Source of the DNA: Chiloscyllium plagiosum
Taxonomy: Eukaryota
Direction: 5' to 3'
Length of the DNA stretch: 56,383 bases
NCBI RefSeq assembly: GCF_004010195.1
Contig: NC_057719.1
Coordinates: 17,118,517-17,174,899, forward strand
Shown here: piece after piece, positions 9,030 through 47,822 of the stretch
Position numbering within the stretch: position 1 is the stretch's first letter
Layout of the letters: each line of letters starts with the position of its first letter
Made by a program: the position numbers and the translations under genes
The notes under the pieces: generated by a model
Seen by the model: the letters and a program-made list of their open reading frames with translations, nothing else
Database searches by the model: none
Told to the model about the DNA's origin: nothing

Positions 9030-10370
9030 TCTTAGATTTTTAGGTTTAGATTTAGATTTTATTGTCAAGTGTACTCAAGTACAGAAATATAGGAGTAAAG
9101 TGAAAAGTGTATGTGTTCACCATTTTAGGTACAAAGGTACAAAACATTTAGGTACAATGTTAACATAACTAAGAAACATAGTTAATATTACAATCCTTCT
9201 TTAAATAAAGTAAAAAAAGGAAGAAAGTTAAACATTCACCAGTCTTTGATGAGTTCTCTGTCCTCTTGCTGTCCGAGAGACCTCAGCTGCCTGTTCTCAG
9301 CGCTGTACAGATACTCTGGGAGACCAAACACTCCAGGCTGAGACACCAACCACGCAGGACTGAGACACTAATCACTGGGCTGAGAAATGGCCATGCAGAC
9401 TGACAGACTGCCGAGACACTAACAACACTGGGCTAAGTGCCCGCAATGTAGGCCGAGAGACCGTAATGCTGGGCCAAGGGATAACTACGCATGGCTGAGA
9501 CACTAACCACTCCGGGCCGAGAGACTGCCACGCCAGGCCAAGAGACCATAACGCTTGGCCAAAAGATGATCACGCCAGGCCAAGATACCAACCACAGTGG
9601 GCCAATATACCAACCACGCTGGGCCAATATACCAACCACGCTGGGCCAAGATACCAACCACACCGGGCTAAGACACCAACCACGCTGGGACAAGACATGA
9701 ACCACGCCAGACCAAGATCCCAGCCACACTGGGCCAAGATACCAACCACGCTGGGCCAAGATACCAACCATGCCAGGCCAAAACACTAACCACTCCAGGC
9801 TGAGACGCCAACCACTCCGGGCTGAGACACCAACCACTCAAGGCTGAGACACCAACCACTCAAGGCTGAAACACCAATCACTCTGGGCTGAGACATCAAC
9901 CATTCAAGGCTGAGACACCAATCACTCTGGGTTGAGACACCAACCATGCAGGGCTGAGACACCAACCCACACGGGCTGAGGCACCTACCACTCCTGGCTG
10001 AGACACCAACACTCCAGGCCAAGACACCAATCACGCCAGGCCGAGACTCTAACCACTCCGGGCTGAGACACCAACCGCTCCTGGCTGAGACACCAACCAC
10101 GCAGGGCCGAGACACCAACCACTCCAGGCCCAGATACTAACCACGCAGGGCCGAGACACCAACCACTCCAGGCCCAGATACTAACCACTCCGGGCTGAGA
10201 CACTAACCACTCCGGGCCCAGATACTAACTACTCCGGGCTGAGATACCAACCATGCAGGGTGAGTCACCAACCATGCCAGGCCAAGAGATCAACTACACC
10301 TGGCCGAGAAACCGTCACGCTGGGCTGAGATACAAACACAGGCTGCCGAAAGACAGGCTGAGACACCAGA
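9030..10370 (-). mobile_element. Non-autonomous composite retroposon: 22-bp VNTR, AT-rich body, Rex1-like 3' tail
   Basis: (tttaga)n tail, ttttattgtcaagtgtac...gtgaaaag end shared with 50915, 32400 and the Rex1 copies; lies wholly inside a CR1. Confidence 0.6.
9320..10370. repeat. 22-bp minisatellite, roughly 45-48 units (consensus about ccgggctgagacaccaaccact)
   Basis: Direct tandem units; exact 44-bp duplication 10097-10140 / 10141-10184. Confidence 0.95.
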
Positions 10371-12094: not shown

Positions 12095-12300
12095 AATAAA
12101 AGCAAAATACTGCAGATGATGGAATCTGAAAGAAGCACAAAAGTCGCTGGAGAAAATGAGCAGGTCTGGCAGAATCTGTGGAGAGAGAAACTCAGTTAAT
12201 GTTTGATATCCAGTATGATTCTTCATATCAAACTTGAAATGTTTACTATTTCTCTCTCCTTGGGTGCTGCCAGGGTTGTTGAATTTCTCCAGCATTTGTT
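12095..12300. mobile_element. Old inverted pair of PLE ends (family C)
   Basis: ctggagaaaatgagcaggtctggcag ... gctgccagggttgttgaatttctccagca. Confidence 0.7.
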
Positions 12301-12402
12301 GTCAATCACCCAGACTGTGCAAAAACAAATCACTGCTATCTATTGATACCTTTCATTCTCATATTTGTGCCACCAAAGGATTGTCTGTTTCAACCTCAAT
12401 AA

Positions 12403-13114: not shown

Positions 13115-13311
13115 TTTCTGGATCAGTGGTGCTGGAAGAGCACAGCAATTCAGGCAGCATCCAAGGACAGGCAAAAGCCCTTCATCAGGAAGGGCTTTTG
13201 CCCGAAACGTCGATTTTGCCTGTCCTCGGATGCTGCCTGAATTGCTGTGCTCTTCCAGCACCACTGATCCAGAATCTGGTTTCCAGCATCTGCAGTCATT
13301 GTTTTTACCTC
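13115..13311. mobile_element. Young palindromic PLE-derived insertion (family A) with 14-bp TSD
   Basis: Near-perfect inverted arms 13116-13274; tattatctgactta at 13101-13114 and 13312-13325. Confidence 0.9.
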
Positions 13312-13586
13312 TATTATCTGACTTACCCAATTCTCGATGTACTTTGTTTTCCCTCTTTAATGTTATGTTCTTGTTCCTTCCCCCTGCCAACATAGTTTAA
13401 ACCCTCTCTAGTAACTCTCTCAAACTGCTCTGCAAACACACTCCCTGCTTCTTTTGAAGAATAATTATTCAGCCTGCATAAATCCCACCTCTCCAAAACC
13501 AGACCCGGTTTTTCAGGAATTTAAAGCCTTCACTCTTGTTCTATCTTTCTACTCATGATATGGAGGTGCTGTTGTTGGACTGGGGT

Positions 13587-14447
13587 CATAGAGTCATAGA
13601 GACATAAAGCACGGAAACCTACCCTTCGCTCCAACCTGTCCATGCCGACCAGATATCCCAACCCAATCTAGTCCCACCTGGCAGCACCTGGCCCATATCC
13701 CTCTAAACCTTTCCTATTCATATACCCATCCAGATGCCTTTTAAATGGTGCAATTGTACTAGCCTCCACCACTTCCTCTGGCAGCTCATTCAAATCAAAT
13801 CCCCAACTATGACGAGTACCACCCTCTGCATAAAAAAGTTGCCCCTTTTGTCTCTTTTATATCTTTCCCCTCTCACCCTAAACCTATGCCCTCTAGTTCT
13901 GGATTCCCCGACCCCAGGGAAGAGACTTTGTCTATTTATCCTATCCATGCCCCTCACGATTTTATAAACCTCTGTAAGGTCACCCCTCAGCCTCCGATGC
14001 TCCAGGGAAAACAGCCCCAGCCTATTCAACCTCTCCCTATAGCTCAATTCCTTCAACTCTGCCAACACTCTTGTAAATCCTTTCTGAACCCTTTCAAGTT
14101 TCACAACATCTTTCCGATAGAAGGAGACCAGAATTGCACGAAATATACCAACACGGCCTAACCAATGTCCTGTACAGCCGCACCATGACCTCCCAGCTCC
14201 TGTACTTAATAATCTGACCAATAAAGCAAAACATACCAAACGCCTTCCTCACTATCCTATCTACCTGTCACTCCACTTACAAGGAGCTACAAACCTGCAC
14301 TCCAAGGTCTCTTTGTTCAGCAACACTCCCTAGGACCTTACCATTAAGCGTATAAGTCCTGCTAAGATTTGCATTCCCAAAATGCAGCACCTCGCATTTA
14401 TCTGAATTAAACTCCATCTGCCACTTCTCAGTCCATTGGCCCATCTT
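13587..14447 (-). mobile_element. CR1/HER1 LINE, 5'-truncated, young
   Basis: YRKDVVKLERVQKGFTR...RRLRGDLTEVYKIVRGMDR...RTRGHRFRVRGER; (catagagt)n tail. Confidence 0.95.
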
Positions 14448-14577
14448 TGTACAAAGTTAAAAATCACACAACATCAGGTTATAGTCCAACAGGTTTATTT
14501 GGAAGCACTAGCTTTCGGAGCACACCCCTGTACCAACCACGTCCTCTTACACTTGCCCCTACTCTTTGCAAAACAAC

Positions 14578-14612
14578 CACCTGATGAAAGAGCAGCGCTC
14601 CGAAAGCTAGTG
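14578..14612 (+). ncRNA. Minimal hammerhead ribozyme motif (family B)
   Basis: cac-CTGATGA-aa-GAGC-agc-GCTC-c-GAA-AGCT-A-gtg; helix I cac/gtg; mismatch at base of stem II. Confidence 0.6.
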
Positions 14613-15058
14613 CTTCCAAATAAACCTGTTGGACTATAACCTGGTATTGCGTGATTTTTTAACTCCATCCTCCTCGCCACACATTCATCTATGCCAACCA
14701 CCAATATCTGTGCTCACCAGCCTGTAGCATTGGGACTAATCCAGAGATTATTATCTTTTAAGTATCCAGCTTGCTGGGTTCTTTCCTAAACTCCATAAGA
14801 TCTGCATAAGGCACTCATCTACCTATGTGGTCATTTTCAACATGGGTGAATCCTCACTGGAAATCAAGCCCTGTCATTCCTAGAGTTGTGAAAAATGTTA
14901 AACACTTTATCAAAGTATGCAAAATTCTCAACTTACCAGCTCAGGTCACTGTACATAACTATGATTTATAACAAATAAATAGATTCTAACCACATGCAAG
15001 CAATAATGAACTGCCATATAAATCTGCTAGTTAAAACTCTGAGCTCTTTCTAACCAGA

Positions 15059-15113
15059 CAACACACTGACACACGCACGCACACAAACATAAACACACAC
15101 ACACACAGACACA
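15059..15113. repeat. Imperfect (CA)n microsatellite
   Basis: acacactgacacacgcacgcacacaaacataaacacacacacacacagacac. Confidence 0.8.
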
Positions 15114-16459
15114 TGTGAAAATTGGTGTGATAGGTGGAAAAAATAATTCGCTGGGGTAACAGCTCAATATCACCAGTCCTCAGAATTTGATAGGATGTTC
15201 ATTTTCCAAATGCCACCCAGGAACCATTCAAAGATTTGTGATCATGCTGACAACCTTCCATAAACCAATCAACAACTTGTTGGCAGCTGAATCTCACTTT
15301 GTACACATGCCAGCACCAACCACGCCCTCTTACACTTTCCCCTACTCTTTGCAAAACAACAGTGTAAACACAACCCACAATGATTTTCAAGAACTTGCTT
15401 TTTGAAAACACAGTAAATCCACCCTCAGTCCTTAGGGGTGAACCAATACTTTTTTTCAATTCAGTCTACAAATAAAAATAAAGTTATATAAAAGGGTCCA
15501 GTCTATTATAAATGCTCTGGACCACTCTGAACCCTCGGAGTTTTTGACAGCTATTCATTTCTTCCTTGAATCTGGCACTAGTGAGGCAAGCTACCACATT
15601 GTAGTCCCATTTATTGCCATGGTAACATCGAGCTATACCGCAACAGGCTCTTTCAGTCCACCCTCTACCTCTGTCATCCCATCTTATCCTAGTCATCTCC
15701 TTTAAGGAACAATTGGATCTTTGAGACACCTCCTCTCCAGCCATTTGCCTGAAGCAGTCCATTGAGTCTCTGCAGTTTATCCAGTGCATGATAATGAGGC
15801 CAGAGGTCCAATATTAGGTCCATCTGTCCATTCAGGCTCAGGCAATGTTCCTTCCAACCATTGCACCCATTTCCCAGATCAAACAAATCTCCCTTCTTCT
15901 GTCTTTTTTATCTAATTAACGTATATTCCTAATAGATTTTCTTCATTACCATGAATTATTCATACGCTAAAGCTATTGCATAAATAGAAATCCTGGAAAT
16001 ATTCAGCTAATTAACATATTGTGCAATTCCAATCTTCTTGTGTAGTTTAATATTATGCACCTAATTATAATATTGTTACATAACCTCACTGCTCTTACTG
16101 AAAACAGCGCTCAACATATTCTGGAACGCTCTCCCAACCTGCCAGATACACGTGTAAAGTTATATAATAACTATTTGTCTTTTAGTAATCTAACCCTTTT
16201 CCAGAAATCTAGGTCATTATAGTGATCAGCATCAAGTGCCATTTTGAACCCCAAATGATTTAGACTGAACTACTTCGGCATTCACTGAAATCCAAATTTC
16301 ACCCAATATCTTTCCAATACAGCCACTTAAGGAAAATTGAATGAAAAGAAGAAGGAATGAGTTGTTTTTACCTGTTCTGCAGTATTTTACAGTACAAAGC
16401 CTTGATTCTTTAAAATGTAATAGTACGTGTTAATGAATAGAAAAAGAAGATAAATGACT

Positions 16460-17789: not shown

Positions 17790-18000
17790 GAAATCTGGAG
17801 AATACTGGAGAAACTCAGCAGGTCTAGGAGCATCTGTGGAGAGAGAAATATAGCTAACATTTGAAAGCTGGTCTGACCCTTCTTCAGACCGCAAGTTTTA
17901 AACAAAAATCATGTGGATCTCAAAGCATCAACTCAGTTTCTCTCTCCATAGATGCTGCCAGTCCTGTTGAGTTTCTCCGGCATTTTCTATATTTGTTTCA
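17790..18000. mobile_element. Inverted pair of PLE ends (family C)
   Basis: ctggagaaactcagcaggtc...gacccttcttcaga ... gatgctgccagtcctgttgagtttctccggca. Confidence 0.75.
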
Positions 18001-19994: not shown

Positions 19995-20305
19995 ATTAGA
20001 TTACATGATTAGATTAGATTACATTACAGCGTGGAAACAGGCCCTTCGGCCCAACAAGTCCACACCGACCCGCCGAAGCGCAACCCACCCATGCCCCTAC
20101 ATTTACCCCTTACCTAACACTACGGGCAATTTAGCATGACCAATTCACCTGACCTGCACATCTTTGGACTGTGGGAGGAAACCGGAGCACCCGGAGGAAA
20201 CCCACGCAGACACAGGGAGAACGTGCAAACTCCACACAGTCAGTCGCCTGAGGTGGGAATTGAACCCAGGTCTCAGGTACTGTGAGGCAGTAGTGCTAAC
20301 CACTG
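19995..20305 (-). mobile_element. HE1 SINE, young subfamily
   Basis: (attag)n tail, CpG-rich body close to the 27407 copy. Confidence 0.95.
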
Positions 20306-23300
20306 ACAGTGGCAAATGTTTCTGGAGAGGGGTTTAACACCGGAAGAGAGAACACCATTAACAATATCAATAACCTGGGGTCCAAGAAAATAATAGCTTG
20401 ACAGCCTTCTAAAAGCAAGATTGAAGTCAAAGGCCAATAAGTTCAAACATTCATCCTGTTGTCATATTATGTGATAATGCTATAGCAAGATGTTAAGAAA
20501 ACAGATCCCTAACTGCCTTGTGTAGGTCAACTTAGCAGGAACAAGAAGAGACTGTGCATAGCCCCATTTGAATGTCAAAATGTAATTTCACTGGCAAGCT
20601 TTCTTCACCTCAAGAACATGGGTTTAAATCCAGGGCTGACAAGGAGGATAAAGGTCTCCACTTCCTAATGGCTGGGATGGATCCTAAGTGCAATGGGTCT
20701 GAGCAGTTAATCACAACTGAAAATGAGCTGGCCCACAATACAAAAGTGGTCATAAATCCAATGCTAATTGGTACTAGGAGTGCTTGATGCTGCCACTGGG
20801 TATAAAGTGGATAAGATTTCCATTCCGGGGGCTCACAGTCCTTCACCTCTATGAACATATGCACACAAATGTATGTTTTATGTTGTGCATCATATGACCT
20901 GTAACGCAGTGGTGCAGTTGTGCTTTCTTGCTTTATGAACTGGAAGTAATGTAAATGATGTAACACAATCTTGAAGGATACAGATCCACACCAGCAACTT
21001 AACAGCATATACTCTTCCCATCTTTTTATCGGCCCACACAAACCATTAGAACAAATAGAATTATGTAGGTGCAATGTAGAATAGAAAAATAATTGAATAT
21101 ATGGAATTGGATAATACAACAGCAAATGAGGTGAATATTCCAAATGTTGTACAGTCTATCACTGCACCCTGTTAGTAATTCAGCATTTTTCCCTTTATAC
21201 GCTGTTTTGCAATGTTTTCAAAACAGGAGAGAGGCCTGGTCTGGGTCACAAATTCTCTCAATTCTGTTTTATAATGGAACGCTCGGACAAAAGAGATTGA
21301 TCTTCAGATTTGTTTCCCACTGGATTCTGCACCTCGTTGCCACGTGATGCGTCCCCTCTCATCTCCACTTGAGAATTAGCCCCCAAACTGAGGGAATGGA
21401 TTTGGATGGCAATGTTTCCTGAGACATCAACTCTCAACTCAGTCAGACTCGGGGTACCGCTCCTTCGAGGTGGGACCAGGAATAAACTAAACTATCTTTT
21501 CATGACAGCAGCCTACGCTGTTGACCCCTCACAAGGATTCTGAAAGCGGGGTAGCATTCTGCTTCCCAGCGCCGTCTTGTCTCACCTTAATGAGGTCTGA
21601 TCGTGCTGCTGCACGTGAAGACACAGTCCACGTTCTGGGGACTCGGCGTTTGCTACATTGTTCAGCAGAATAAGCAGCGATTGTTGAACTCTTGTCATGA
21701 ATAATTTCCATACTGAAATTATCATCTTCTACTCCTGTAGATTTCAGGCCAAGGCATCAGAGGCCTCCCTTCCGTTCCCTTCCCTTCCCTCCACTGGCTT
21801 TGGGATGCTGTTTCCCTCATAAATTATTGATAGTCAAGGAGCCTGCCAACTTCACTTTCAGACAGACAAAAGGGGACAGGATGGCATCTCACGCTGCTCA
21901 GGGCCTCCTTTCATTAAAAACATTTCAGCTTGTTCTCCAAGGGCACCCTCTGTCACTCTCTGCCATGCTGGAGAAAATAGCTTTGAAGCCCAGTGAATAG
22001 TACAAATGAATTACTCTTCAGGTACTGGCACAATCTGATTATAAAACCCAATTCAGCAGTGTCCTTCACACCTTTTCACTTGTAGCTACATAATCAGCAT
22101 GCGTCATTTCATCTTTCTGTCTTTTTTCTTTCTCGTGCTTTTTTAACTTGCCTGTCCTTCCAGAAGATATAACCATTTACAGTTGCTCTGTAATTAAATA
22201 TTTATAAATCTGAGCAATGGTTAGCTGCTGAATAATAAATAATGAGACCAGGATGGCTTTGGATAATCTCCCCCAGCTTTTCATCCCCAGTCCTTTAACA
22301 TAGAGATAGGAGTTATTTGCTGAAAGTCAGTCAGAGTACACTTCTTTATTCCAGTAGCTTCGGTACTTTTTACAGTTGTTGCTGGTAGTATGTGACTGAT
22401 GGAAAATTCCAGTCACTGTTTTCCTGCACTATGTCTGCAACACAAATATGAATGACCAATCTCTAGGATAATCAATTATACCACAAATGCAATGGGATAT
22501 GTGCAGAGCTGACGGCAGGTGATATCACATGACCTTGGATCACCAGAACACATGGAAGATCCCCTGACCTTTAAAATAAATAATTGATATAGTCATGTAG
22601 CTATTATGTTATTACTTTACCGTGCTAATGACTGGTATAAATGTGATATCCAATTTTAGATGCGCCAAATAATAGTTTAACTTCCGACACTGTGCAACCC
22701 TCACAAATGTGCAGTGTCCCTCAGTCAATTATTGTGTGGAATTCTAGTCCGCTCTTGTCAGTTATCACAGTATACATTGCACTGCCTTAATATTGCAGTT
22801 ATTTTTCTCTCTTCCACACGTGTTTATTTGAACAAAGGATGGCGGTGTCAGGAACCTGTTTCTCACTTAAATTCCAAGACAGCCTTGAGGCCCAACAGGT
22901 CATCAGTTCCAGAAACCGAGCTCCTACAATCTGCTGCCATAATTGAGCACTGGACCGTAAAGCCAGGCATATAGGGCAAGGAGATCTCAATGGCCTGGAC
23001 TAACCCATGGCAACAAAGAGATGAGGAATATCTTCAAAGTGCAGGGTGGTTGAGAATGTTGATAAAATAATGGAACAGAGAGCGGACGTTCACCATGAGA
23101 CAACAACAAAAACTTGCATTTATGTAGCATTCTTAACGGGATAAAAAGAAATCCCAAAGTGCTCCCAAGGAGCAAATATCAAAATTTTGATTCTAAATGA
23201 ACAGTCTGTACCACTGCCAAGCATGTTTTATAAGTTCTATGTACTATTCCTCCCCATAAGAGAGATTTGCTGCCATCATCCTCTTTCAGGATAAGGATTT

Positions 23301-23597
23301 GGTCTCGAGTGATGGAGGACAATGACTTAGTAGTCTAACAAGAAGATCTAGTTTATTCTTTGATAGTAACTATGTACAACTTACAACTTATGTGACAAAC
23401 TTTGTTATACAGACAATGAGGAGGACTTGTTTGGTCGGCTGTACTCCTTCGAAATCCTGTTCTCTTCTTCCCACAAGTCTATACTACCTCTTCAGAGCAG
23501 ATGTTGCTGAAGTCACTTCTCAGCATTAACCCTTTCAGACTCCTACATTCTCACACAAGCCACATAAGCAGATATCACAACGGGTAACAAAAAACTT

Positions 23598-23778
23598 AGA
23601 GTCATAGTCATAGAGATGTACAGCACGGAAACAGTCCCTTCAGTCCAACTCGTCCATGCTGACCAGATATCCCAACCCAATCTAGTCCCACCTGTCAGCA
23701 CCTGGCCATGCCCCTCATGATTTTATAAACCTCTATAAGGTCACCCCTCAGCCTCCAACCCTCCAGGGAAAACAGCCC
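23598..23778 (-). mobile_element. CR1/HER1 3' end with internal deletion
   Basis: Matches the 13587 copy but lacks about 250 bp; junction cctggccatgcccctc. Confidence 0.85.
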
Positions 23779-24234
23779 TCGACCAAAGAGGTAAACTTTA
23801 TTGTAAGTTCAGAGATACAATTGTATTCTTATTTGTTGTCTGGTTCCATTCTTATCCATCTAATCACAGTCAGAATACCAACTGCAATGGCTTTTCTTCT
23901 TGTTACTGCATTGTTACCTCTAGTGTGCTCAAATAATCAATCATTGGTCCCTTTCTCGATAATATGCTGCGTACTCATGAGTCTATCCTAAAACGTGACC
24001 ACAGCTTCCACATGGACATTGACAATTCCCAGCTGTACCCAACTATCACTGTCTCCAAGTTATCAGATTGCTATTCAAAATCCAGTGCTGGATGAATATA
24101 AATTTTCTCCAATTAAATATGAGCAAGTCCAAAAATATTGTCTTCAATCCTCATCACAAGCAGGGACTCAAATCCTCTTCCAGGCAACTGCCTGAGGTTG
24201 AACCAGAGTGTTCACACCTCGGTGTCATATTTGT

Positions 24235-24507
24235 CTCTTCGGTTTTTGCCAAGTGCATGTGGGCGTGGGTTTCTTCCGAGTGTTCCAATTTCTTATTACA
24301 ATACAAAGATGTGCAGGTTAGCTGGATTGACCATACCAAGTTGCCTATAGTGTCCAGGGATGTGTTGGTTAGCTGGATTAGCCATGGGAAGTGGAGGGTT
24401 ACAGGGATACAGTAAGGGAGATGAGTCTGGGTAGGATGCTCTTCAGAGAGTTGTTGTGGACTCATTGGGCCAAATGGTCTGTTTCCACGCTATGGGATTC
24501 TGTGATT
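24235..24507 (+). mobile_element. HE1-related SINE, 5'-truncated
   Basis: caaagatgtgcaggttagctggattg...ggccaaatggtctgtttcc. Confidence 0.85.
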
Positions 24508-24759
24508 CGATGTGTTGCTGACAACATAACCAGACTACCCCCAAGACCACTTATTTCCACCTCTACAACATTGCCTGACTCTGTCAAAACTCAACTGTAG
24601 CGAAACCCTCACTCATGCCCTTTTCAACTCTCAGCATAATTATTGCAACACTCTTCTCGTTAAGTGGGAGAAGAACAGTTCTTCAAACAATAAAAGGCCA
24701 TTTTTAAAAGTCTTTATTTATGAGAACTGGCCTCTGAGGCCTTAGATTTTAATTGGCAA

Positions 24760-24880
24760 ACTCGACCCAAAATGTTAACTCTGATTTCTCTCTGCAGATG
24801 CTGCCAGACCTGCTGAGCTTTTCCAGCAATTTCTAATTTTGTCTCTGACTTGCAGCATCTGCAGATCTTTTGGTTTTTAC
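24760..24880 (+). mobile_element. PLE end fragment (family C)
   Basis: gacccaaaatgttaactctgatttctctctgcagatgctgccagacctgctgag. Confidence 0.75.
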
Positions 24881-25059
24881 CCAGATTTCAATTGTTCTAA
24901 CATTGGCATCAGGTTCCAAGGGCAGACTCTGGAATTCCTTAAATCATTCCATTTCTCCACTGCTCTCTGCTCCTATAAGGTGCTGGTGAAAAGTTGCCTT
25001 TTTTTTCACAAAGCTATTCAAATTACTTCTTTTATATCTTGGAGTCAGATCTTGAGAAT

Positions 25060-25355
25060 TATTAGATTACTTACAGTGTGGAAACAGGCCCTTCGGCCCA
25101 ACAAGTCCACACGAACCCTCCACCCACCCACACATTTATCCCTTCACTTAACACTACAGGCAATTTAGCGTGGCCAATTCACCTGACCTGCACATCTTTG
25201 GACTGTGGCAGGAAACCGGAGCACCCGGAGGAAACCCACACAGACATGGGGAGAATGTGCAAATTCCACACAGTCAGTCGCCTGAGGTGGGAATTGAACC
25301 CAGGTCTCTGGCGCTGTGAGGCAGCAGTGCTAACCACTGTGCCACCGTGCCACCC
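25060..25355 (-). mobile_element. HE1 SINE
   Basis: Canonical structure. Confidence 0.93.
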
Positions 25356-26381
25356 AATTAGCTCACGATTATGCTTTGAAATGCTTTGAGACATTTTATT
25401 TTGTTAAAGGAGCTATATAAATGCAAGATCATGTTGCTGTGAAACAATAGACAGGGGAAGGAATTTCAGAGCTTAGAGGTGTGGAAACTCAAGGTATGAT
25501 CACTAAAGGTGGAGAGTTTAAAACTGTGTTGTGCAAAGAGACAGAATTGAAGAAGTGCAAAGTTGTGAGGCTGGAGAAAATTGCAAAACAAGTTATGGAG
25601 TAAACTGCACAGGAATTTGAAAATGACGATGAGAATTATTTACAGTTCATTATAATCCCACTGTGCGTGTGTCTCTTCCTCTGTGTAATTGCCAACAAGA
25701 ATAGTTTCACAACCCCATGTCCAACTCAATCACTGGAATCCACTGTCATACCATGTGATTAAAATAGCTTTAACTACCTTTAAACACAGTTTGATCAAAC
25801 CCTAATATTGAGGCACCAGACAGTGAGGCAGGTTTTTTTTTTGATGCTGTGCAGTAAAAATGCAATTACACTGGAGCTCAGAGAGCATTTGGAGTTTGTA
25901 GAAACTCTATGCCCATATCACAGTGGGCCCATTTTAAATACTAGTGTACTTGTACACCTTAGCTTCATTGAGTTACCAGAATAAATGCAAACCTACTTGA
26001 ATGAAGCCCTATAGTAGCATATCAGATTTGCCTGAGGTTTGTCCTAGTTTTCTTTAACGTCCATTTGGAATTGAAGTGAGGCATGTTTCAGGGTCAGTAG
26101 AGCTCTTAAAGAGGAACTGAATTTATATCCCATAAAAAGCAGAAAATGTTAGACAACATCTATTGACAGAGAAAAACAGATTTAACATTTTCAGATCATG
26201 ACTTTTTTTTCAATCAGACATTATATGATCTTTATTGTGATATGTGTGTATATCATTGTTTTGAATATCTGTTTTTGACATTTTTATCAATTTTCTGGGA
26301 TCATCTTTTGGTGTTATTTCTTTTCTAAGCTTCTTCTGATAAATTTGTGGTTAAAATGTTTCCGGTACAATCCTACTTTTG

Positions 26382-26690
26382 GAGTCATAGCATTGAACAG
26401 TGTGGAAAGAGGCCCTTCAGCCCATCGTGTCCATGTCAGTCATCAACCACCAATTTCGTCTAGTCCCCTCTGCCAACATTTGGCCCATAGCCTTGTGTAC
26501 CTATGGAGTTTCAAATGTTCTTCTAAATATTTCTTAAATGTTGTGATGATTCCCAGCTCCACCATCCTCTCAGGCAGTGAGTTCCAGATTATCAACCACC
26601 CGCTGTGTGAAAAACCTTTCTTAAATTTCTTCAAAACCTACTGTCCCTTACCTTTCTTCAATAGCCCCCAGTTATTGATCCCTTCTAACC
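26382..26690 (-). mobile_element. CR1 3' end
   Basis: IWNSLPERMVELGIITTFKKYLEEHL. Confidence 0.85.
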
Positions 26691-26849
26691 AAGCTTTGTT
26701 AGCCTAACAATGATTCTTACAAAAGTACAGTGGAGACTGAATGCAGTGAGATTGAGTGTTTGAATCTGGAAACCCAGACTGTATTCCGCCTTACTCATCT
26801 AGATGGGTGAATGCTTTGCTGAACACTGATATTCTCTATGTAAAAATAA

Positions 26850-27405
26850 CCCGGTGCATCCAGTTGCCTGCCATTACAACACACTGCCATGTTCTCTGCC
26901 TAACACTGGGCTCGCTGCAGTGTTCCAGAGAAGCTCACTGCAAGCTGGAGAAACAGCATCTCATCTTCCACTTGGAGCCTTTAGCACTCAATACCAATAT
27001 CAGTAATGTTAAAGCCGCTGTTCATATCCTTTACCTTCCCTACACTCCAGCTCCTGTCATGACATGGGGTGCTTTCAGCCCAGCCAATCTATTTTCATCT
27101 ACTCACTAACCCCTTTATCAGGTTTTCTTCTTCCCTGGCTCACTATCAGCCATCGCTTAGTCTGCCTGACCTTCCCTTTCTCTGCTTGGACTCTGTCTCC
27201 ACCTATCGGCTCACTCCTTTGCCCTCCACCTCCTGTCATCAGCATTTATACTGCCTTTTCCTAGTTATTATCAGGTCTGAAGAACAGTCAGTGGACCCAA
27301 AAGGTTAACTCTGTTTTCTCTCCACAGATGTTGCCAGACCTGCTGAGTTTCTCCAGCAATTTCTGTTTTTGCTTCAGGTCTTCAGTATCCGCAGTTCTTT
27401 GTCTT
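26850..27405 (+). mobile_element. Penelope-like element: GIY-YIG C-terminus, 3' UTR and degenerate hammerhead
   Basis: LGSLQCSREAHCKLEKQHLIFHL; tctgaagaacagtcagtggacccaaaaggttaac at about 27277. Confidence 0.85.
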
Positions 27406-27406
27406 A

Positions 27407-27717
27407 TTAGATTAGATTATATTACAGTGTGGAAACAGGCCCTTTGGCCCAACAAGTCCACACCGACCCGCCGAAGCGCAACCCACCCAGACCCATTCCC
27501 CTACATTTACCCCTTCACCTAACACTACCGGCAATTTAGCATGGCCACTTCACCTAACCTGCACAGTTATTGGATTGTGGGAGGAAACCGGAGCACCTGG
27601 AGGAAACCCACGCAGACACGGGGAGAATGCGCAAACTCCACACACAGAGTCGCCTGAGGCGGGAATCAAACCCAGGTCTCTGGCGCTATGAGGCAGCAGT
27701 GCTAACCACTGTGCCAA
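27407..27717 (-). mobile_element. HE1 SINE
   Basis: Canonical structure. Confidence 0.93.
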
Positions 27718-27879
27718 CTATTATCACAGTTCAAGGAACTTCATCTTCAGGTTGTGGACATTGTAATGCATCTGGGAGGGGTAAATTGCAGTTTTCTCCA
27801 GGATAGTTCCTTCAGATTTGCTTCATGATCAAGGGCAGGTGGGTGTGACTATAAGAGAGGCAGGGATGCAGCTTAATAA

Positions 27880-28100
27880 CTTAAACCATAAGCAAATTGG
27901 CACAGAGTAAGTGAGGTCAGAGAGTTGAATGTGTGGTTCAAATATTGGCGTGGGAATAGTGCAGTTTGATTCATGGAAGACTGGTTCCAGTGTTGGGAAA
28001 AGAGCTGTACTATTTTCACAACCTTAACCTGAACTATGCTGGGATCAACATATCATCTATCTGTGACTGTAGAGGTAAAGAGAACTGTCAAGGCAGGGAA
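27880..28100 (+). mobile_element. Old CR1 ORF1 esterase C-terminal remnant
   Basis: EVRELNVWFKYW...FMEDWFQCW...LNLNYAG. Confidence 0.55.
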
Positions 28101-28184
28101 CAGGTCCTTGAATATGACTGGTTATCTTAAATTAGTTGTTGATGTAGGTATCTGCACATTCGAGATTGTTCAGCCAATGCTGCC

Positions 28185-28415
28185 TGTAGTGATTGTAACG
28201 AGGTTAGCCAGGTGGACCTCATACCATGTGAGTTCCCTGATGGGGCTGCTACTCTGATCCAAACAGGGAGCCCTGGCTGACAGATAAGGACAGGAGTGTC
28301 AGAGGTTCTATTCGCTCTGAGAGCTGGCTCTGAGGGAGCCGGACCAATGTCAAGTAGTATGCATGTGTAAATAAAGGGTGACTTGGTGACGGGATACCAA
28401 CCTCTGTGAAGTGAT
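28185..28415 (+). mobile_element. Probable solo LTR
   Basis: Begins TGTAGTG; CCAAT-like and TATA-like motifs; AATAAA near 28370; 3' end degenerate. Confidence 0.6.
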
Positions 28416-30029
28416 CTTGCTGCCCAATTTCAGAATCACATTTAACAGTCAGGTCAGCAAGTGGCACTTTGAATACAGCCTGTACTTTACCTGTTCCAAA
28501 TAACTGAAGGAATATGCCGCTTGATTTAATGAGCCATTTGTTGGAACAAATGGCCAACATATTTGACATCTCATGGCACTGAAATCCATACACGTTATTT
28601 CTCAACCATATAATGGGCAGGTTATATTTCTGGCTGATATCACCTTGTGTAGGAAGGGTAGTAAGAATGGCGAGGAGAGGACAAGCAGTTGGGAAAGGAA
28701 AAGAAAGAGCCATACTGGGCAAGTAAGAAGGAGGCACAGGAAAGGTAGAGTGTTTAAGAAAGTCCAGACCATGACATTGATCTTGAAATTGGTGGGGTAG
28801 GGAAACAGGATGTTCTGAAAGGGTGCAAATGATTCCTCGGGTGTGGGTTGCCAGCAAGACATTGGAAGACAGCTGTCAGGAAAACGCCGTGTCTTGGCTG
28901 CCTCATATTCTTAAGAATGATCAGCACCATAAATCTCCACTCCTTTCAGGAACATTGAGCCTTCCTCTCCAAATCACTGATCTGGAAGGGTGCATATTAT
29001 GAAGCAGCTTATTAGTTTTCCATTTTTTTTATGTGTACATCAGCAGAACAGCAACTGAGAATGATATTCAGGAATAAATTGACTACATCTAAACTTTACA
29101 TGTAATTTCAGACCTTGCATAGTCAAGAGTGGAAAATCTATTTTATTACATTTACATGCTAATAACATGCCAAGTTAAAATCACACAGCTTTTATTTTTG
29201 AAACGTGCTTTAGATCTGGTCACTAATGTTTGCACAAGACACTATTTGCCAAAAACTAAGTGCACAATCATTGAGATTGCCTACATTGCAAGCTGAAGTT
29301 CAGTTCATAACTATACTTAATTTGTTAATGTGCAAAAGGGTAAGGAGACCTAAATAAAATAAGGCACCTTGAATTAACTCATTGTCATATTACATTTATT
29401 CAACCTAGATCAGTGACAGGAATGCGTCCCCTCTAAAACAGGATTGATGGGACTTTATGTCAATGTTTCTCTCCCGTGTAAGCAGAGTGATAGATGCACA
29501 GCTTCACTCAAGCTTAGAACTTTATTATTCTGCATCACATGAGAACTGCTGCTGTACAATGGGTGGAATTGTAGGTAACAGCTAAAAATATGATTTAAGA
29601 CACAAATAAAAAGTATAATACGCACTCAGATTCAAGTGCATTTATCCTGCTCTCCTGCAACAATCCAGTTTAACACTGAGTCTCACTTCAAGTCAAAGAT
29701 GTATAACAAGTAATACACTGTGCTCATTGTCTGTTTTCTTATTCCCTCGTGCACAATTAAATGAGGTAGGTCCAGTTAGTGATCCATATTGGTTGTATGC
29801 TATGTTGAAACACACACTAAAGCCAATCTTGGCTCAGTGTCAATACCGTATGACTGTCTGTAATAACATTGTAGTGACAATGCATAGCAAGAGAGATAAA
29901 AGATGAATCAATATTTGAAAAAGCAAATCATAGTCCTTGTGGCAGAATTAAGCTGGACCTGGAGAAGGTCAAATCAGAATAGTCCAAATTCAATTATTCC
30001 AGTTTGCATCACATGTTGGAATATTGTCA

Positions 30030-36464: not shown

Positions 36465-36550
36465 TGAATAGTGTGGCGCTGGAAAAGTACAGCAGCTCAG
36501 ATAGCATCTGAGGAGAAAGAGGATCAACAATTTGGGCTTAAGCCCTTTAT
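36465..36550 (-). mobile_element. PLE end fragment (family A)
   Basis: gtgtggcgctggaaaagtacagcag...tttgggcttaagccctt. Confidence 0.65.
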
Positions 36551-38959: not shown

Positions 38960-39185
38960 AAGAAAAATACTGTGGATGCTAAAAATCTGAAATGACAACA
39001 GAGAAATTCATCAGGTCTGGCCTCATCTGCAGAAGAAAAGAAAAATGGAGTCAATGTTTTGAGTCCCACAGCACTTGATCAGAACTGTTCAGAAGTTGTG
39101 TCATTGGATTTAAAAAGTTATTGTTGCTTCTCTTTCCAAAGATGCTGCTAGAGCTGCTGAGTTTCTCCAGCACTTTCTGTTTTTA
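38960..39185. mobile_element. Old inverted pair of PLE ends (family C)
   Basis: tcaggtctggcctcatctgcag ... gatgctgctagagctgctgagtttctccagca. Confidence 0.65.
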
Positions 39186-40437
39186 TTCCAATGAACACAT
39201 TATATGTGCTCCTTTCGGACCTGTCCTCTGCCAATGAATGGTTCAGTGTGTTGTGATACATTGCCAATCTTTTTTGGCAGGTTGGGGGTTACCAGTCCAA
39301 GCATTAGACTTGCCCCAGCTGCATGAACAGCTTTTGCTTCCTATCTACGATCTGAAACTCCAGATCTTTATTCATGTTACTGCACTGGGCTCTCAGAGTA
39401 ATCTCTCCTCCCTACATGAATACAATGTAATCATACAGCCTCAACACCACTTTAGGGGACTTCATTTTTGAATTGTCAAACTGAGCCACATCATATAGAT
39501 CTGGGAACGTCATGATGTTGCACAAAGCACCAGTGTCTATCAGACTCTTTATTTTCATCTAATGTTCTCCTTTGTGGTCATCATTCTATCACATGCCTAT
39601 CATCCTGACTGAATCAACGTGTTATATGGTATGGTATATGGTTTAGCTGGTATTCCTCCGGTGGCCTTCTTTATTTGCTTGCTATCCTTTTTTCTAGCCA
39701 TATCCTTCTGAGAAAAATGATATAGCTACTTGCAAGAAGAATATTGCTTTTGCCACACTGAACATGCCTTCTTCTCTGTTGTGTGATGTCCTCTGAAGTA
39801 TTTTCAAGCTGCCCTTTGTTCATAGTTGTTCTGCCCTTAGGGCTTGTAATATTTATCAATATTATGCAAGATTTGTCAAGAATATGTTTTAGCAGCTGAT
39901 TTAAAAAATCAGCGCTAATGCACGTCAATTTCTTCATGTTTCTCCTCTTTTAGTAGATATACTCTCATTGCAGGATCCTTATGCCTAATGCAATCTTGTT
40001 TTTAATTAGTTCATCTTCTAGTTTCACAGTTCCCACAATTTTTGATCTGACTTAATTAAGTCACACATTGACCAATGACTCTATTTTTCACTTTCAACCC
40101 TAAAACTGAAAAAGTGTCATTCATAAGTTTGTTTCACTTAGGGTTCAAAGCATGCCTTCAAGCCTTTTGCAATTTCTACATTGTTCCATTTTCCTGTTCT
40201 TCAGAGTGATTTGGAGTGGAGTACACTTTGCAACAGATTGTTCTCAGCACTGAGGAGATTAGCAACACATTGCACCTCGAGCTCGTTAAAAAGATTTGTT
40301 GCTGGTTTGCAACTTTACCATTCCACATTGAGAAAAACCTGCCAATTCTGTTTCACATGCACTGATAAATCCAATTTCAACAATGCTTTATGGCTGTTCA
40401 ACTATAAAACATAGCAAGTTCTTTTGCCTATACACAA

Positions 40438-44337: not shown

Positions 44338-45984
44338 GTCTCTTCAAAAATAAGTAGATGATCTGATTCTTATTATACTCCTTTTGTGACAACTTCCTAT
44401 GTGCAAATCAGCTGACATAATTCTAGCATTGGTCATTAGTTCAGTAACAGCAGAGCAAATGGGGACATTCTAAGATTATGACGGCACTATATAAATGTAA
44501 GTGCTTTCTGTTCTACTTGTGATTCTATGAAAGGAAAATCAAAGTCAAGTTTCTCGTTGCTGCTCCTTTAAGGCATCACATTGACTGGAAAATGCAAGAT
44601 CTCGGGTTATTATAAACTCAGAGGGAGTGGCAATGCACTGTCACCTGGAATACTTACAATCTGAACCAACGATTACTGACCCCAGCACTGCCAATACTGG
44701 GCCTTGCCACCAGAATCGATGGCTCTTAGAATATGGCAGAATACACCAAATACAAAATAAAAGCCACTGAAGAGTAAAATTTCGCCAATACATCTGTCAA
44801 TTTATCTCATTCGACCTAAAATAGATATTGACAGTTAGTTTCAGAGTTGAAAATTGGCAGAAAGCGTGCATCATTTTAGAAGTTACAGGAAAGATTAAGT
44901 ACCAAATTAAAGTTAATGAAAAAGGAGGCACAGTGCCACAGGTATATGGCATAATGCCACCAGTGTGCCAACATGCGTTAACATGGAGTGGTAGGACCTG
45001 GGTTCGTGCCAGAGATTTCTCGCATGATGAGCTCTTAGTCTTGGCATAGTACCAGATGGAGGTGCAGAGTCAAAGCAGAACACTTCCCCATAAGGATGCA
45101 GGGAGAAACAGAGGGGATCTCACAAAACAACATCATGGCTTGCCTTGAAAAAAGTATCCCCTTTACCCCAGGTGTGATAGTCTCATTTTTTAGATCTAGA
45201 AGCAACTTATCATTGTTGTATCTTTTTACTGGGTGGCACAAAAGACCTCTCGGGACGAGTGAGACCTCATCTGTCAAGTACTCAGGTCTCTGCTATTTCT
45301 GGACCCAATAATTTGCCCCTCCAAACCCACACCTGAGCAGGAGAGTAGGAACGGCCTCAGGAAAAGCTGCACAAATATCTTTATAATTCAATATTTTATT
45401 GGGATTAGTCGTCCCTAATCTCTTAGCCTCACTCCAGCAGTACTTTCTGGAGTTATAAGGAATCGCTGCGTGTGACACCCTCCAACCTGCATGAGGTCGA
45501 GCACCAGTTCAGAGCAAGTTTTTGACAAAAAGGTTTTACTTATTCAGCCAGCACATTCCTAAGCCAAATACTTTTCCTTGTTCGGTAACTCTTATAATAT
45601 GATGAAGTTTGGCTCCTTGTTAAAATGAGCCAACTACCTTCGGATGGAATCATGACACTGCTACTGGAGGTGGATGTGTTGAAGCTGCAGCTTCCCACAG
45701 TCAACTTACTTCCTGGAAGCCCTCGCTACAAGACCACCTCTTCAAAACTGCTCATGTCTAATTTGGAGAATGTGAGTTATACTCTTAGACTGAGAAAGCA
45801 GCAACAGGTGCAACACTGCCAACAGAATATGTGCTTCATCCAACCATTTGAAACCCTCCAGCAGTTAGATATGGAGATGCTCTCTGTCAGTCTGCAGTGC
45901 AAAACATTTTTGAGGAGTTTCTTTTAGGGTTATGCATTGAGATCATTGTCCCTTGACACATTCGTCTTTATGCTCACAACCAAT

Positions 45985-46827
45985 GCCATCCATTGCCTGG
46001 GAATGGCAGTATTCGGACCAGACATCATGCATCAGTTGGAGGACGCTCAGGTAGAATCCTGTCTGTATGTACCACCGTTCGGAAGAAAATTCGCATCGGG
46101 CCCCAGGTTCCCGAATCTCTCTCAGGGGCCTGCGCCCCACAACCTGAGCCGCCTCTTGAATATGGGTTGCGTGTCTTTCAGGGAGACAAAATGGTGGTTT
46201 CTGCGTAGACTGCTGCTGCACACCATCCACCTCCATTCTTACGTCTACTGTTCAGACATGCCTTGGCGTGCTTACTTTTCACTAGGTGCTGGGAATCCCC
46301 GGTAGATGGCTCTCTACGGGGGAGCCCTCCCTTTTCCCATTGGGGACCTAGGTTGGAGGGTGTCACACACAGCGATTCCTTATAACTACAGATTGCGGTG
46401 GTTCACGTACTCCCAACTGTTTATTTTGTGGCCCTGTGGAGTCCATGGACCATGTGCATATATTGGCTGTAGGCATTTGCACTCCCTTTTCAAAAAAACC
46501 TTCTGTTATGTTTAAGGTTGTGCTTCAGCCCCACAATTCTGATCTTTGGGCACTCGGTGTCAAGTGGTGTGGGCAGATGGGAGGACCTCCTGTGGGTCTG
46601 CTCCTGGGCTTGGACAGATTGGCATTAAACAGGTCAAGGCAGAGTGGACCCTGGAGGAGGTCATTTCTACCAACTGCCTGCCGCTCTTCCGTGGTTACAT
46701 TTGAGCCTGGGTGTCCCTGGAGACGGAGCACGCGGTGGCCACCAATGCTATTGATGCCTTTAGGATGAAGTTGGGCACCGCGGGGGTGGAGTGCTTTATT
46801 TCCTCCTCCAACTCCATTTTGATTTAG
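45985..46827 (+). mobile_element. Tx1-like (L1 clade) ORF2 C-terminal remnant with zinc knuckle, frameshifted
   Basis: PHNLSRL...DMPWR...DLGWRVSH...CLFCGPVESMDH...FSPTILIFGH...VGLLLGL...CLPLFRGY...ECFISSSNSILI*. Confidence 0.85.
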
Positions 46828-47450
46828 TCCCCTCCTTCTTTTCCTAATCCCATCCTCTCCCCCTTCACATTTTGATGGAAGCCTTGTCTTTAAAAGGTTT
46901 TGCTTGTTAATGTTCAATTGGTTTTGGGCTGGTGGATAAAATGAATCATAAAATGGTGTCTTTTAACTGTTTCACTGTAGAAAAAATCATACAGAGCCAT
47001 AGGTGGTATGGGGAAAGATATAAGCATTACAGCTGGGCCCTCTTGGTGCAGTGGTCGCATGGGGGTAAAAAGGGACAATATAAATTAAATAAAGGAGGGT
47101 CTGCATAAATCCAAGTTATATAAAAGTTCTATCTTGGTGGAATTTTAATGCAATAATCTCTTCACTGAAGGCCCTCTACTTTCCTAAGGCTTGTGTTGAG
47201 AACTTGGTCACTTCAATCTGCAAAAATGAATGACAGGTGTCTACTGAATAGATTGCATTTCGGAGGTATCTTCCTGAAAAGTAACCCAAAAGGCATTGAA
47301 ACAAGACTATTCTGAGCTGTTGCTGACCATTTTGAGGATGCTTTGTGTGGACATAGGAGAGTTTACTTCGTACAAAGGGTGAAAGTAGATGTTCTAATGA
47401 GGAATGTTCTGTGTCCTCAGGGGACAGGAGACCTCCTTGGTTTCCTGCCA

Positions 47451-47479
47451 CCCCCCCCCCCCCCCCCCCCCCCCCCCCC
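47451..47479. repeat. Poly-C tract (29 nt)
   Basis: Direct count, followed by gaaagcctcc(cca)n. Confidence 0.9.
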
Positions 47480-47606
47480 GAAAGCCTCCCCACCACCACC
47501 ACCCACTCCTCTGCTGCAATTGGTTTGGTCTCCTACTCTCTTCCAATTCCTTAATCAGAGAAATGAAGACCCAAATAGGATGCCCATGACAAACCACTCC
47601 CTATCG

Positions 47607-47822
47607 TGATGTGAAGGTGCCAGTGTAGGACTGGGATGGTCAAACTTAAAAATCACACAATACCAGGTTATAGTCCAATAGGTTTATTTGGAAAAACAGC
47701 TTTCGGAGCGTAACTCTTTCATTAGGTAACTAGCTACCTGATGAAGGAGCAGCGCTCCTAAAGTTAGTACTTCCAAATAGACCTGTTGGACTATAACATG
47801 ATGTTGTGTGAGTTTTAACTTA
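47607..47822. mobile_element. Palindromic PLE-derived unit (family B), degenerate hammerheads on both strands
   Basis: aaaatcacacaataccaggttatagtcca...ctttcggagcg / cctgatgaaggagcagcgctcctaaag...ggactataacatgatgttgtgtga. Confidence 0.85.

Follow-up and report, generated by a model that had tools for sequence, protein, structure and literature searches.

A locally templated spacer between the inverted arms of a truncated Penelope-like insertion in Chiloscyllium plagiosum

The two inverted arms of a truncated Penelope-like element (PLE) in a 56,383-nucleotide stretch of Chiloscyllium plagiosum DNA (contig NC_057719.1; here called the window) are separated by a spacer that is a copy of local single-copy DNA, joined to the element via microhomology as a template switch predicts. 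We think it probable that this spacer is templated filler that arose at insertion, when the ends of two cDNAs primed separately were being joined.

Comparison of the window with itself revealed a direct match between 14532-14577 and 15315-15360, at an offset of 783, that is 44/46 identical (2 mismatches), just as a sequence-only reading of the window had reported. The expectation of this match is ~6e-19 (chance about 1e-18), and 15315-15360 is the only match to the spacer across the window. At the same offset, the similarity continues for 11 nt on the left (14521-14531 vs 15304-15314; 7/11 identical, P = 0.009), and the full duplicated tract is 51/57 identical, with 6 mismatches. When the donor letters of a second organism (organism B, described below) were used, the left extension rose to 9/11 (P = 1.5e-4); of the four additional mismatches, two (15308 and 15314) disappear in this way, as the organism B donor has the letter of the spacer there. 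As extra contigs over 15308 carry the organism A letter, this position is weaker evidence than 15314, and the extension to 57 nt rests firmly only on 15314 and the 7/11 match. The spacer sits between arms at 14455-14523 and 14595-14664 and adjoins the hammerhead motif CAC-CTGATGA at 14578-14587, which is the placement given in the sequence-only reading. That reading described 46 bp of captured neighbouring DNA. The capture holds but the length does not: the tract is ~57 nt, its last 5 nt are also the element's own, and it appears to be a replacement rather than a pure addition. The donor begins 640 nt past the right end of the insertion (Table 1), is surrounded by low-level repeat matches in the reads, and has no convincing target-site duplication or terminal repeats around it. 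The dispersed repeat at 14850-15420 has many differences from its relatives in the reads and includes a CA microsatellite at ~15061-15121. The patch has no evident function and would be a fossil of one insertion event.

Table 1. Positions of the insertion, its spacer, the donor and a sister copy in the window
Feature	Position	Strand	Remarks
Distal tail, 31 nt (element 3' end)	13556..13586	-	Aligns with the left end of the sister copy (47607-47637) and with the family loose-end consensus before 14448/14451
LINE-type fragment nested in the tail	13587..14446	-	7 further matches in the window; the family continues with other letters behind 14446
Proximal 6 nt of tail and left arm	14449..14523	-	Antisense on +; 5'-truncated inside hammerhead stem II; family continuation in loose ends behind 14508
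Captured tract	14521..14577	+	57 nt including overlaps; 49 nt (14524-14572) foreign to the element; single-copy depth in organisms A and B
Left junction overlap	14521..14523	+	1 nt, or 3 nt if a CpG change at 14522 preceded capture
Right junction microhomology	14573..14577	+	5 nt common to donor and element; P of at least 5 nt = 0.005
Right arm, tail-less, sense	14573..14664	+	Minimal type I hammerhead motif 14578-14612; core CTGATGA 14581-14587, GAAA 14602-14605 (motif scan)
Tail-like stretch at donor left edge	15296..15320	+	Exact 11-mer 15296-15306, weaker likeness to ~15320; sense of the right arm
Donor	15304..15360	+	Within an old low-copy dispersed repeat (~14850-15420); single-copy depth at 15314 and 15321
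Sister copy	47607..47821		Tail likewise on the left; left arm longer; loop of 6 nt at the centre, without foreign spacer

We read the host as a PLE insertion that is truncated at its 5' end, has an inverted arm and a minimal hammerhead motif, and bears a tail of 37 nt on one side only. An adjacent inverted, 5'-truncated copy and a one-sided tail of 30-40 bp are given as marks of PLEs in the accessible text of PMC8557442 and PMC3846280. The arms differ by 4 substitutions and 1 gap in 69 columns, and the hairpin that they form is predicted to be very stable (69-bp stem, z = -14.7). The true left end of the element is 13556, not 14455, and is hidden by a LINE fragment that lies inside the tail. 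The two parts of the tail (31 + 6 nt) add up to 37 nt, on the left side only, as in the sister copy. As it is inserted inside the tail, the nested LINE, which we take to be CR1-like from its short-repeat 3' end, is younger than the element; it differs by 10-13% from its nearest copies in the window, a figure that includes subfamily differences. The hammerhead core (14581-14609), with its short stems, fits the minimal type I description in the available part of PMC4209133, and activity is only predicted: Rfam returned 0 matches at the gathering score for the hammerhead region, and the fold did not exceed that of shuffled sequences (z = 0.11). No match to a telomerase-like RT or a GIY-YIG endonuclease was found with Pfam in 57 ORFs of the window, and no coding part is left in the truncated copy. 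A target-site duplication, which PLE insertions often but not always have, was not found at the spacer-bearing copy, and there is at most a degenerate one at the sister. The sister, said in the sequence-only reading to have only a few bases at its centre, indeed has a central loop of 6 nt. A run of ~30 C at 47450-47480, 130 bp to the left of the sister, is a possible minus-strand G-quadruplex tract or an assembly-prone homopolymer.

Four of 23 listed public runs were aligned to 14400-15600 at 85% likeness. In X1 (organism A), a 107-nt contig (14495-14601) spans both junctions with 0 differences, at a depth of 23.3 compared with 23.1-23.6 in the unique flanks; X1 is possibly the same sample as the window, and it tests the assembly rather than an independent individual. 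X6 (organism B) yielded a 114-nt contig (14495-14607) with 4 differences and a depth of 13.9; the donor contig of this run has a depth of 13.8 and departs from the window at 14/479 letters. The comparison with a related organism that the sequence-only reading had proposed finds the spacer in organism B, and the spacer therefore predates the split between A and B. In X12 (organism C), a contig for the right arm and flank (14630-14829) is present, while the spacer and donor are without coverage, a gap that proves nothing. In the raw reads of X21 (~4/100 of the run), the arm bins have depths of ~20,000-29,000, the unique bins ~0-2, and 14556 has 0; the spacer is therefore not part of the family consensus. 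Judged by the arm depth, the copies of the family number roughly ten thousand or more. In the reads the family falls into at least two subtypes, as ~44% have another letter at 14498 and ~9% carry a 2-nt insertion behind 14505. At 14556, 15314 and 15321, only the single-copy contig matches at a likeness of at least 85% in X1 and X6, with ~84-85/100 of each run read.

Both ends of the spacer were examined for overlap with the element. On the right, 7,847 reads of X21 have a loose end just before 14573, where the family sequence diverges from the spacer, and the 5 nt that follow therefore belong to both element and donor. The left overlap is not above chance (P of at least 3 nt = 0.054). Compared with the sister, the left arm is ~17 nt shorter and the loop is missing, so that the spacer would either replace element sequence or adjoin a left arm that never extended that far. 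Position 15356 does not prove a local source: other copies of the repeat differ there from the donor, but its partner 14573 belongs to the microhomology, and the element carries the identical letter at that place. The match to unique nearby DNA (51/57) and the right microhomology are the features of a locally templated junction insertion. A template jump to local DNA or RNA, either at insertion or during later repair, had been suggested in the sequence-only reading; local copying with microhomology is borne out, and for the timing the evidence only leans to insertion.

The anatomy of the copy and the available text of PMC11167929 suggest how such a junction might arise. First, uncleaved element RNA would serve both target DNA ends as template, with priming at the tail end giving the left arm and priming at an internal start site the right arm, which leaves two truncated cDNAs head to head. 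Next, one nascent 3' end would have left its template for chromosomal DNA lying 640 nt off on the right side, of which it copied ~50 nt. Finally, this extension and the other cDNA would have been sealed together by way of overlaps of 5 nt on the right and 1-3 nt on the left; the junction itself is visible in the sequence, and the order of the steps is our suggestion. The polymerase could be the RT of the element or a host repair enzyme, and the template could be resected DNA or a nascent transcript.

Each arm includes sequence that is absent from the other, namely the 37-nt tail on the left and 14573-14594 on the right. As neither arm is wholly contained in the other, fold-back of a single cDNA cannot give both, unless the left arm was trimmed later. 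Both arms cross the hammerhead cut site (its position is inferred), as expected of unprocessed RNA. In the part of PMC11167929 that is available, a PLE protein is reported to cut and extend both target strands in vitro, with two internal start sites that delimit the tail and with uncleaved RNA. Among 15 of 1,391 joints, several other copies of the family join at the places where the spacer ends (left 14520-14523, right 14573-14574), and both ends of the spacer therefore fall where arms can end without a spacer; the joint table was aligned to the spacer-bearing copy, where left arms longer than 14523 are invisible, which biases this argument. Twelve of 800 fillers were examined, and 8 look element-derived by eye while 4 are too short to place; the filler table favours well-supported joints and holds at most 40 letters per filler, so cases like the 57-nt spacer are not detectable in it. 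The divergence between spacer and donor is similar to the 10-13% found between the nested LINE and its nearest copies. Against filler made at insertion speak the distance of the template (640 nt), which is far compared with those of L1 and POLQ, the missing target-site duplication, and organism C, in which spacer and donor have no coverage.

The strongest alternative is later repair of the palindrome, in which a hairpin copy was cut at its centre, by way of a cruciform or a replication stall, lost ~17 nt of the left arm and the loop, and was patched from 640-780 nt away. We consider this a real but rather unlikely possibility. The stem of 69 bp is very stable, the left arm is shorter than that of the sister, deletion plus insertion with microhomology is a known signature of templated repair according to the available text of PMC11541566, and a 43-nt inverted duplication at 900 bp exists in the window outside any palindrome. 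However, the start of the right arm has been kept just upstream of the hammerhead, where the joints of other copies also fall, the spacer is already present in organism B, and there is no sign that it is younger than the arms. The divergence between spacer and donor is 6/57 (95% CI 4-22%) and that between the arms is 4/69 (2-14%; Fisher p = 0.35), a weak comparison of low power. As hairpin arms may be homogenised, dating from them is limited, and a later capture would be compatible with these figures. On balance, the evidence leans to insertion time.

A more specific version of events at insertion, which we regard as improbable, is that the machinery of the element picked the donor because its left edge mimics the tail, either through binding of the PLE protein or through pairing with tail RNA or folded-back cDNA, with the seams then following a recurring, homology-guided copying route. 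The tail-likeness score at the donor edge is reached by 0/5,554 other 60-nt windows on the same strand and by 5 overlapping ones (one site) on the other; among 1,500 random segments, 11 score as high against some part of the element. This test was post hoc, with n = 1, and gives p ~0.001-0.007. The tail-like 11-mer with one mismatch is not enriched in the window (2 found vs 1.2 expected), and it is only as an exact match that the 11-mer at the donor edge is remarkable. The spacer, too, starts with 10 nt that are close to the tail. A two-step path is possible, with fold-back onto the tail followed by pairing with the tail-like donor, although no more than the final 4 letters of the 11-mer would be used in it. 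For the endonuclease of D. virilis, recognition is reported to depend on the tail (as cited in the accessible text of PMC11167929), and by analogy a PLE protein might have bound at the tail-like donor. Some contigs of the surrounding old repeat also cover 15296-15320, and the tail likeness may belong to that repeat family. If the donor was indeed chosen in this way, tens of thousands of seams in the genome would form a readable record of the unsolved step that produces PLE inverted repeats.

An RNA route in cis is a further alternative. Here, a read-through or host transcript over the donor would have been the template, reached by a jump of the RT at insertion or used in later patching. The insertion-time form overlaps with filler made during the joining of the two cDNAs; the later, separate form seems to us very unlikely. 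Tract and right arm agree in sense, and one RT moving along sense RNA could copy the arm and then the donor, a course for which a long distance is no obstacle. Template switches between two RNAs have been described for L1 (PMC11702581) and template jumps proposed for PLEs (PMC3846280), in both cases according to the portions of these papers that are accessible. Direct orientation is, however, equally given by cross-junction DNA synthesis, and no host gene or direction of transcription was found. Pfam was queried with 57 of the 70 ORFs that reach 90 aa, the other 13 lying in obvious repeats; this gave 0 convincing matches and 2 weak ones below the cut-off, and 85/93 exon-like stretches gave 0 convincing matches. 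Even less likely is an origin from a different copy of the old repeat, located elsewhere in the genome, with the local match being incidental. The donor does lie in a dispersed repeat, and other contigs match 15261-15301 and 15343-15424, but the single-copy contig alone covers 14556, 15314 and 15321 in X1 and X6, and the repeat family looks low-copy, which makes the chance presence of a member within 800 bp unlikely. Palindromes and the tandem or inverted structures of PLEs are prone to misassembly (PMC8557442, in the part available), but an assembly artefact or an origin in the family consensus, the two outcomes that the sequence-only reading had named as fatal to its claim, is refuted by junction-spanning contigs at single-copy depth in two organisms and by the zero depth of family reads at 14556, and has next to no probability left.

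Templated filler at insertion can be set beside known systems. The copy resembles the PLE insertions described in the available text of PMC8557442, PMC3846280 and PMC11167929 in its head-to-head arms, one-sided tail (37 nt here), heavy 5' truncation and minimal hammerhead motif. It differs in that no ORF is left and foreign local DNA lies at the junction, where these papers, as far as they are accessible, describe overlaps or palindromes. Host DNA captured by PLEs is placed there between pLTRs, or in spacers of 0.9-1.5 kb before the 3' pLTR, and in the same available portions is not mapped to the flank of the same insertion. Our search of the literature, mostly without subscription papers and supplements, did not find flank-derived filler at a PLE head-to-head junction. 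Templated insertions of L1 are closer: 22 are reported in a set of 3,598 truncated somatic L1s, typically <250 bp and no more than 15 bp from the site (bioRxiv 10.1101/2024.08.27.596794), and 3 cases have genomic templates near the site (PMC11702581), both sources being known from part of their text. In these, too, the insertion contains a second copy of a short genomic segment from close to the target, in some cases at the internal junction of products of twin priming. However, the template there is typically within 15 bp, compared with 640 nt here, and the present case is germline, is fixed across two species and involves a PLE. Cross-junction insertions by POLQ (PMC11541566, accessible in part) share direct orientation, priming and resolving microhomologies, and a template across the break, but their templates peak within 20 bp and their total size is usually <10 bp; at ~50 nt long and 640 nt away, the spacer falls outside the size and distance of TMEJ. 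The available text of PMC11371274 reports that the 3' end of R2 cDNA primes on itself, on nearby target rDNA or on another RNA before joining. The snap-back and extra-template classes of R2 are alike in that a cDNA 3' end primes more synthesis before it is joined; they differ in having one primed end and a fixed site, whereas in the present copy each arm has sequence that the other lacks. Non-LTR retrozymes (bioRxiv 10.64898/2026.07.22.740005, in the portion available) are likewise short non-coding PLE derivatives with a type I hammerhead, but are defined by two or more hammerhead-bearing units in direct tandem; with its single intact sense motif, the inverted pair described here does not belong to this class. 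By analogy, the spacer appears to work like the templated insertions at L1 and R2 junctions, and to differ from them in element class and distance.

For the inverted structure of PLEs, self-priming has been proposed from rotifer copies in the accessible part of PMC3846280. The junction described here favours two separately primed cDNAs joined by end-joining, and suggests that a template can lie hundreds of bases from the free ends that use it. Given the copy number of the family, a single assembly would allow fillers to be scored for rate, side, strand, distance and tail-likeness, which would tell the models apart.

The sequence-only reading had gone on to propose that these palindromes may act as capture sites for flanking sequence. 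Of the 9 centres tested in the window (8/9 two-armed), only one has a local source (score 72), and that centre had been preselected in the reading itself; the next best score was 47, to another copy of the same family, followed by scores of at most 27. One event is an anecdote and does not establish palindromes as general capture sites. Among 15 of 1,391 joints, centres vary from copy to copy, and this makes a seam where two truncated cDNAs meet a better picture of the centre than a loop that absorbs spacers.

A blastn comparison of the window with itself, limited to pairs <6 kb apart whose partners are otherwise unique in the window, returned two pairs besides spacer and donor. One is a 313-nt inverted pair at 67%. 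The other is the 43-nt inverted duplication mentioned above (45446-45488 / 46350-46392; 2 mismatches, 95%, ~900 bp apart). As 46350-46392 lies in a reading frame of a LINE 3' remnant (~46020-46830, plus strand; presumably Tx1/L1-like) that has no Pfam match, its source need not be local. Copies of the family were not found in public viral contigs or in metagenome contigs (0 in each). Another 22 loci, returned by a second-motif search, were rejected as family copies, as their likeness to the window is at most 26 nt each and is attributable to chance. Six more two-armed copies, at 2184-2333, 13116-13274, 36473-36547, 12137-12302, 17791-17994 and 39001-39190, belong to two other hammerhead-type families, in which the length of the centre differs and several single-armed copies also occur. 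A 22-bp minisatellite of >30 units occupies 9490-10330.
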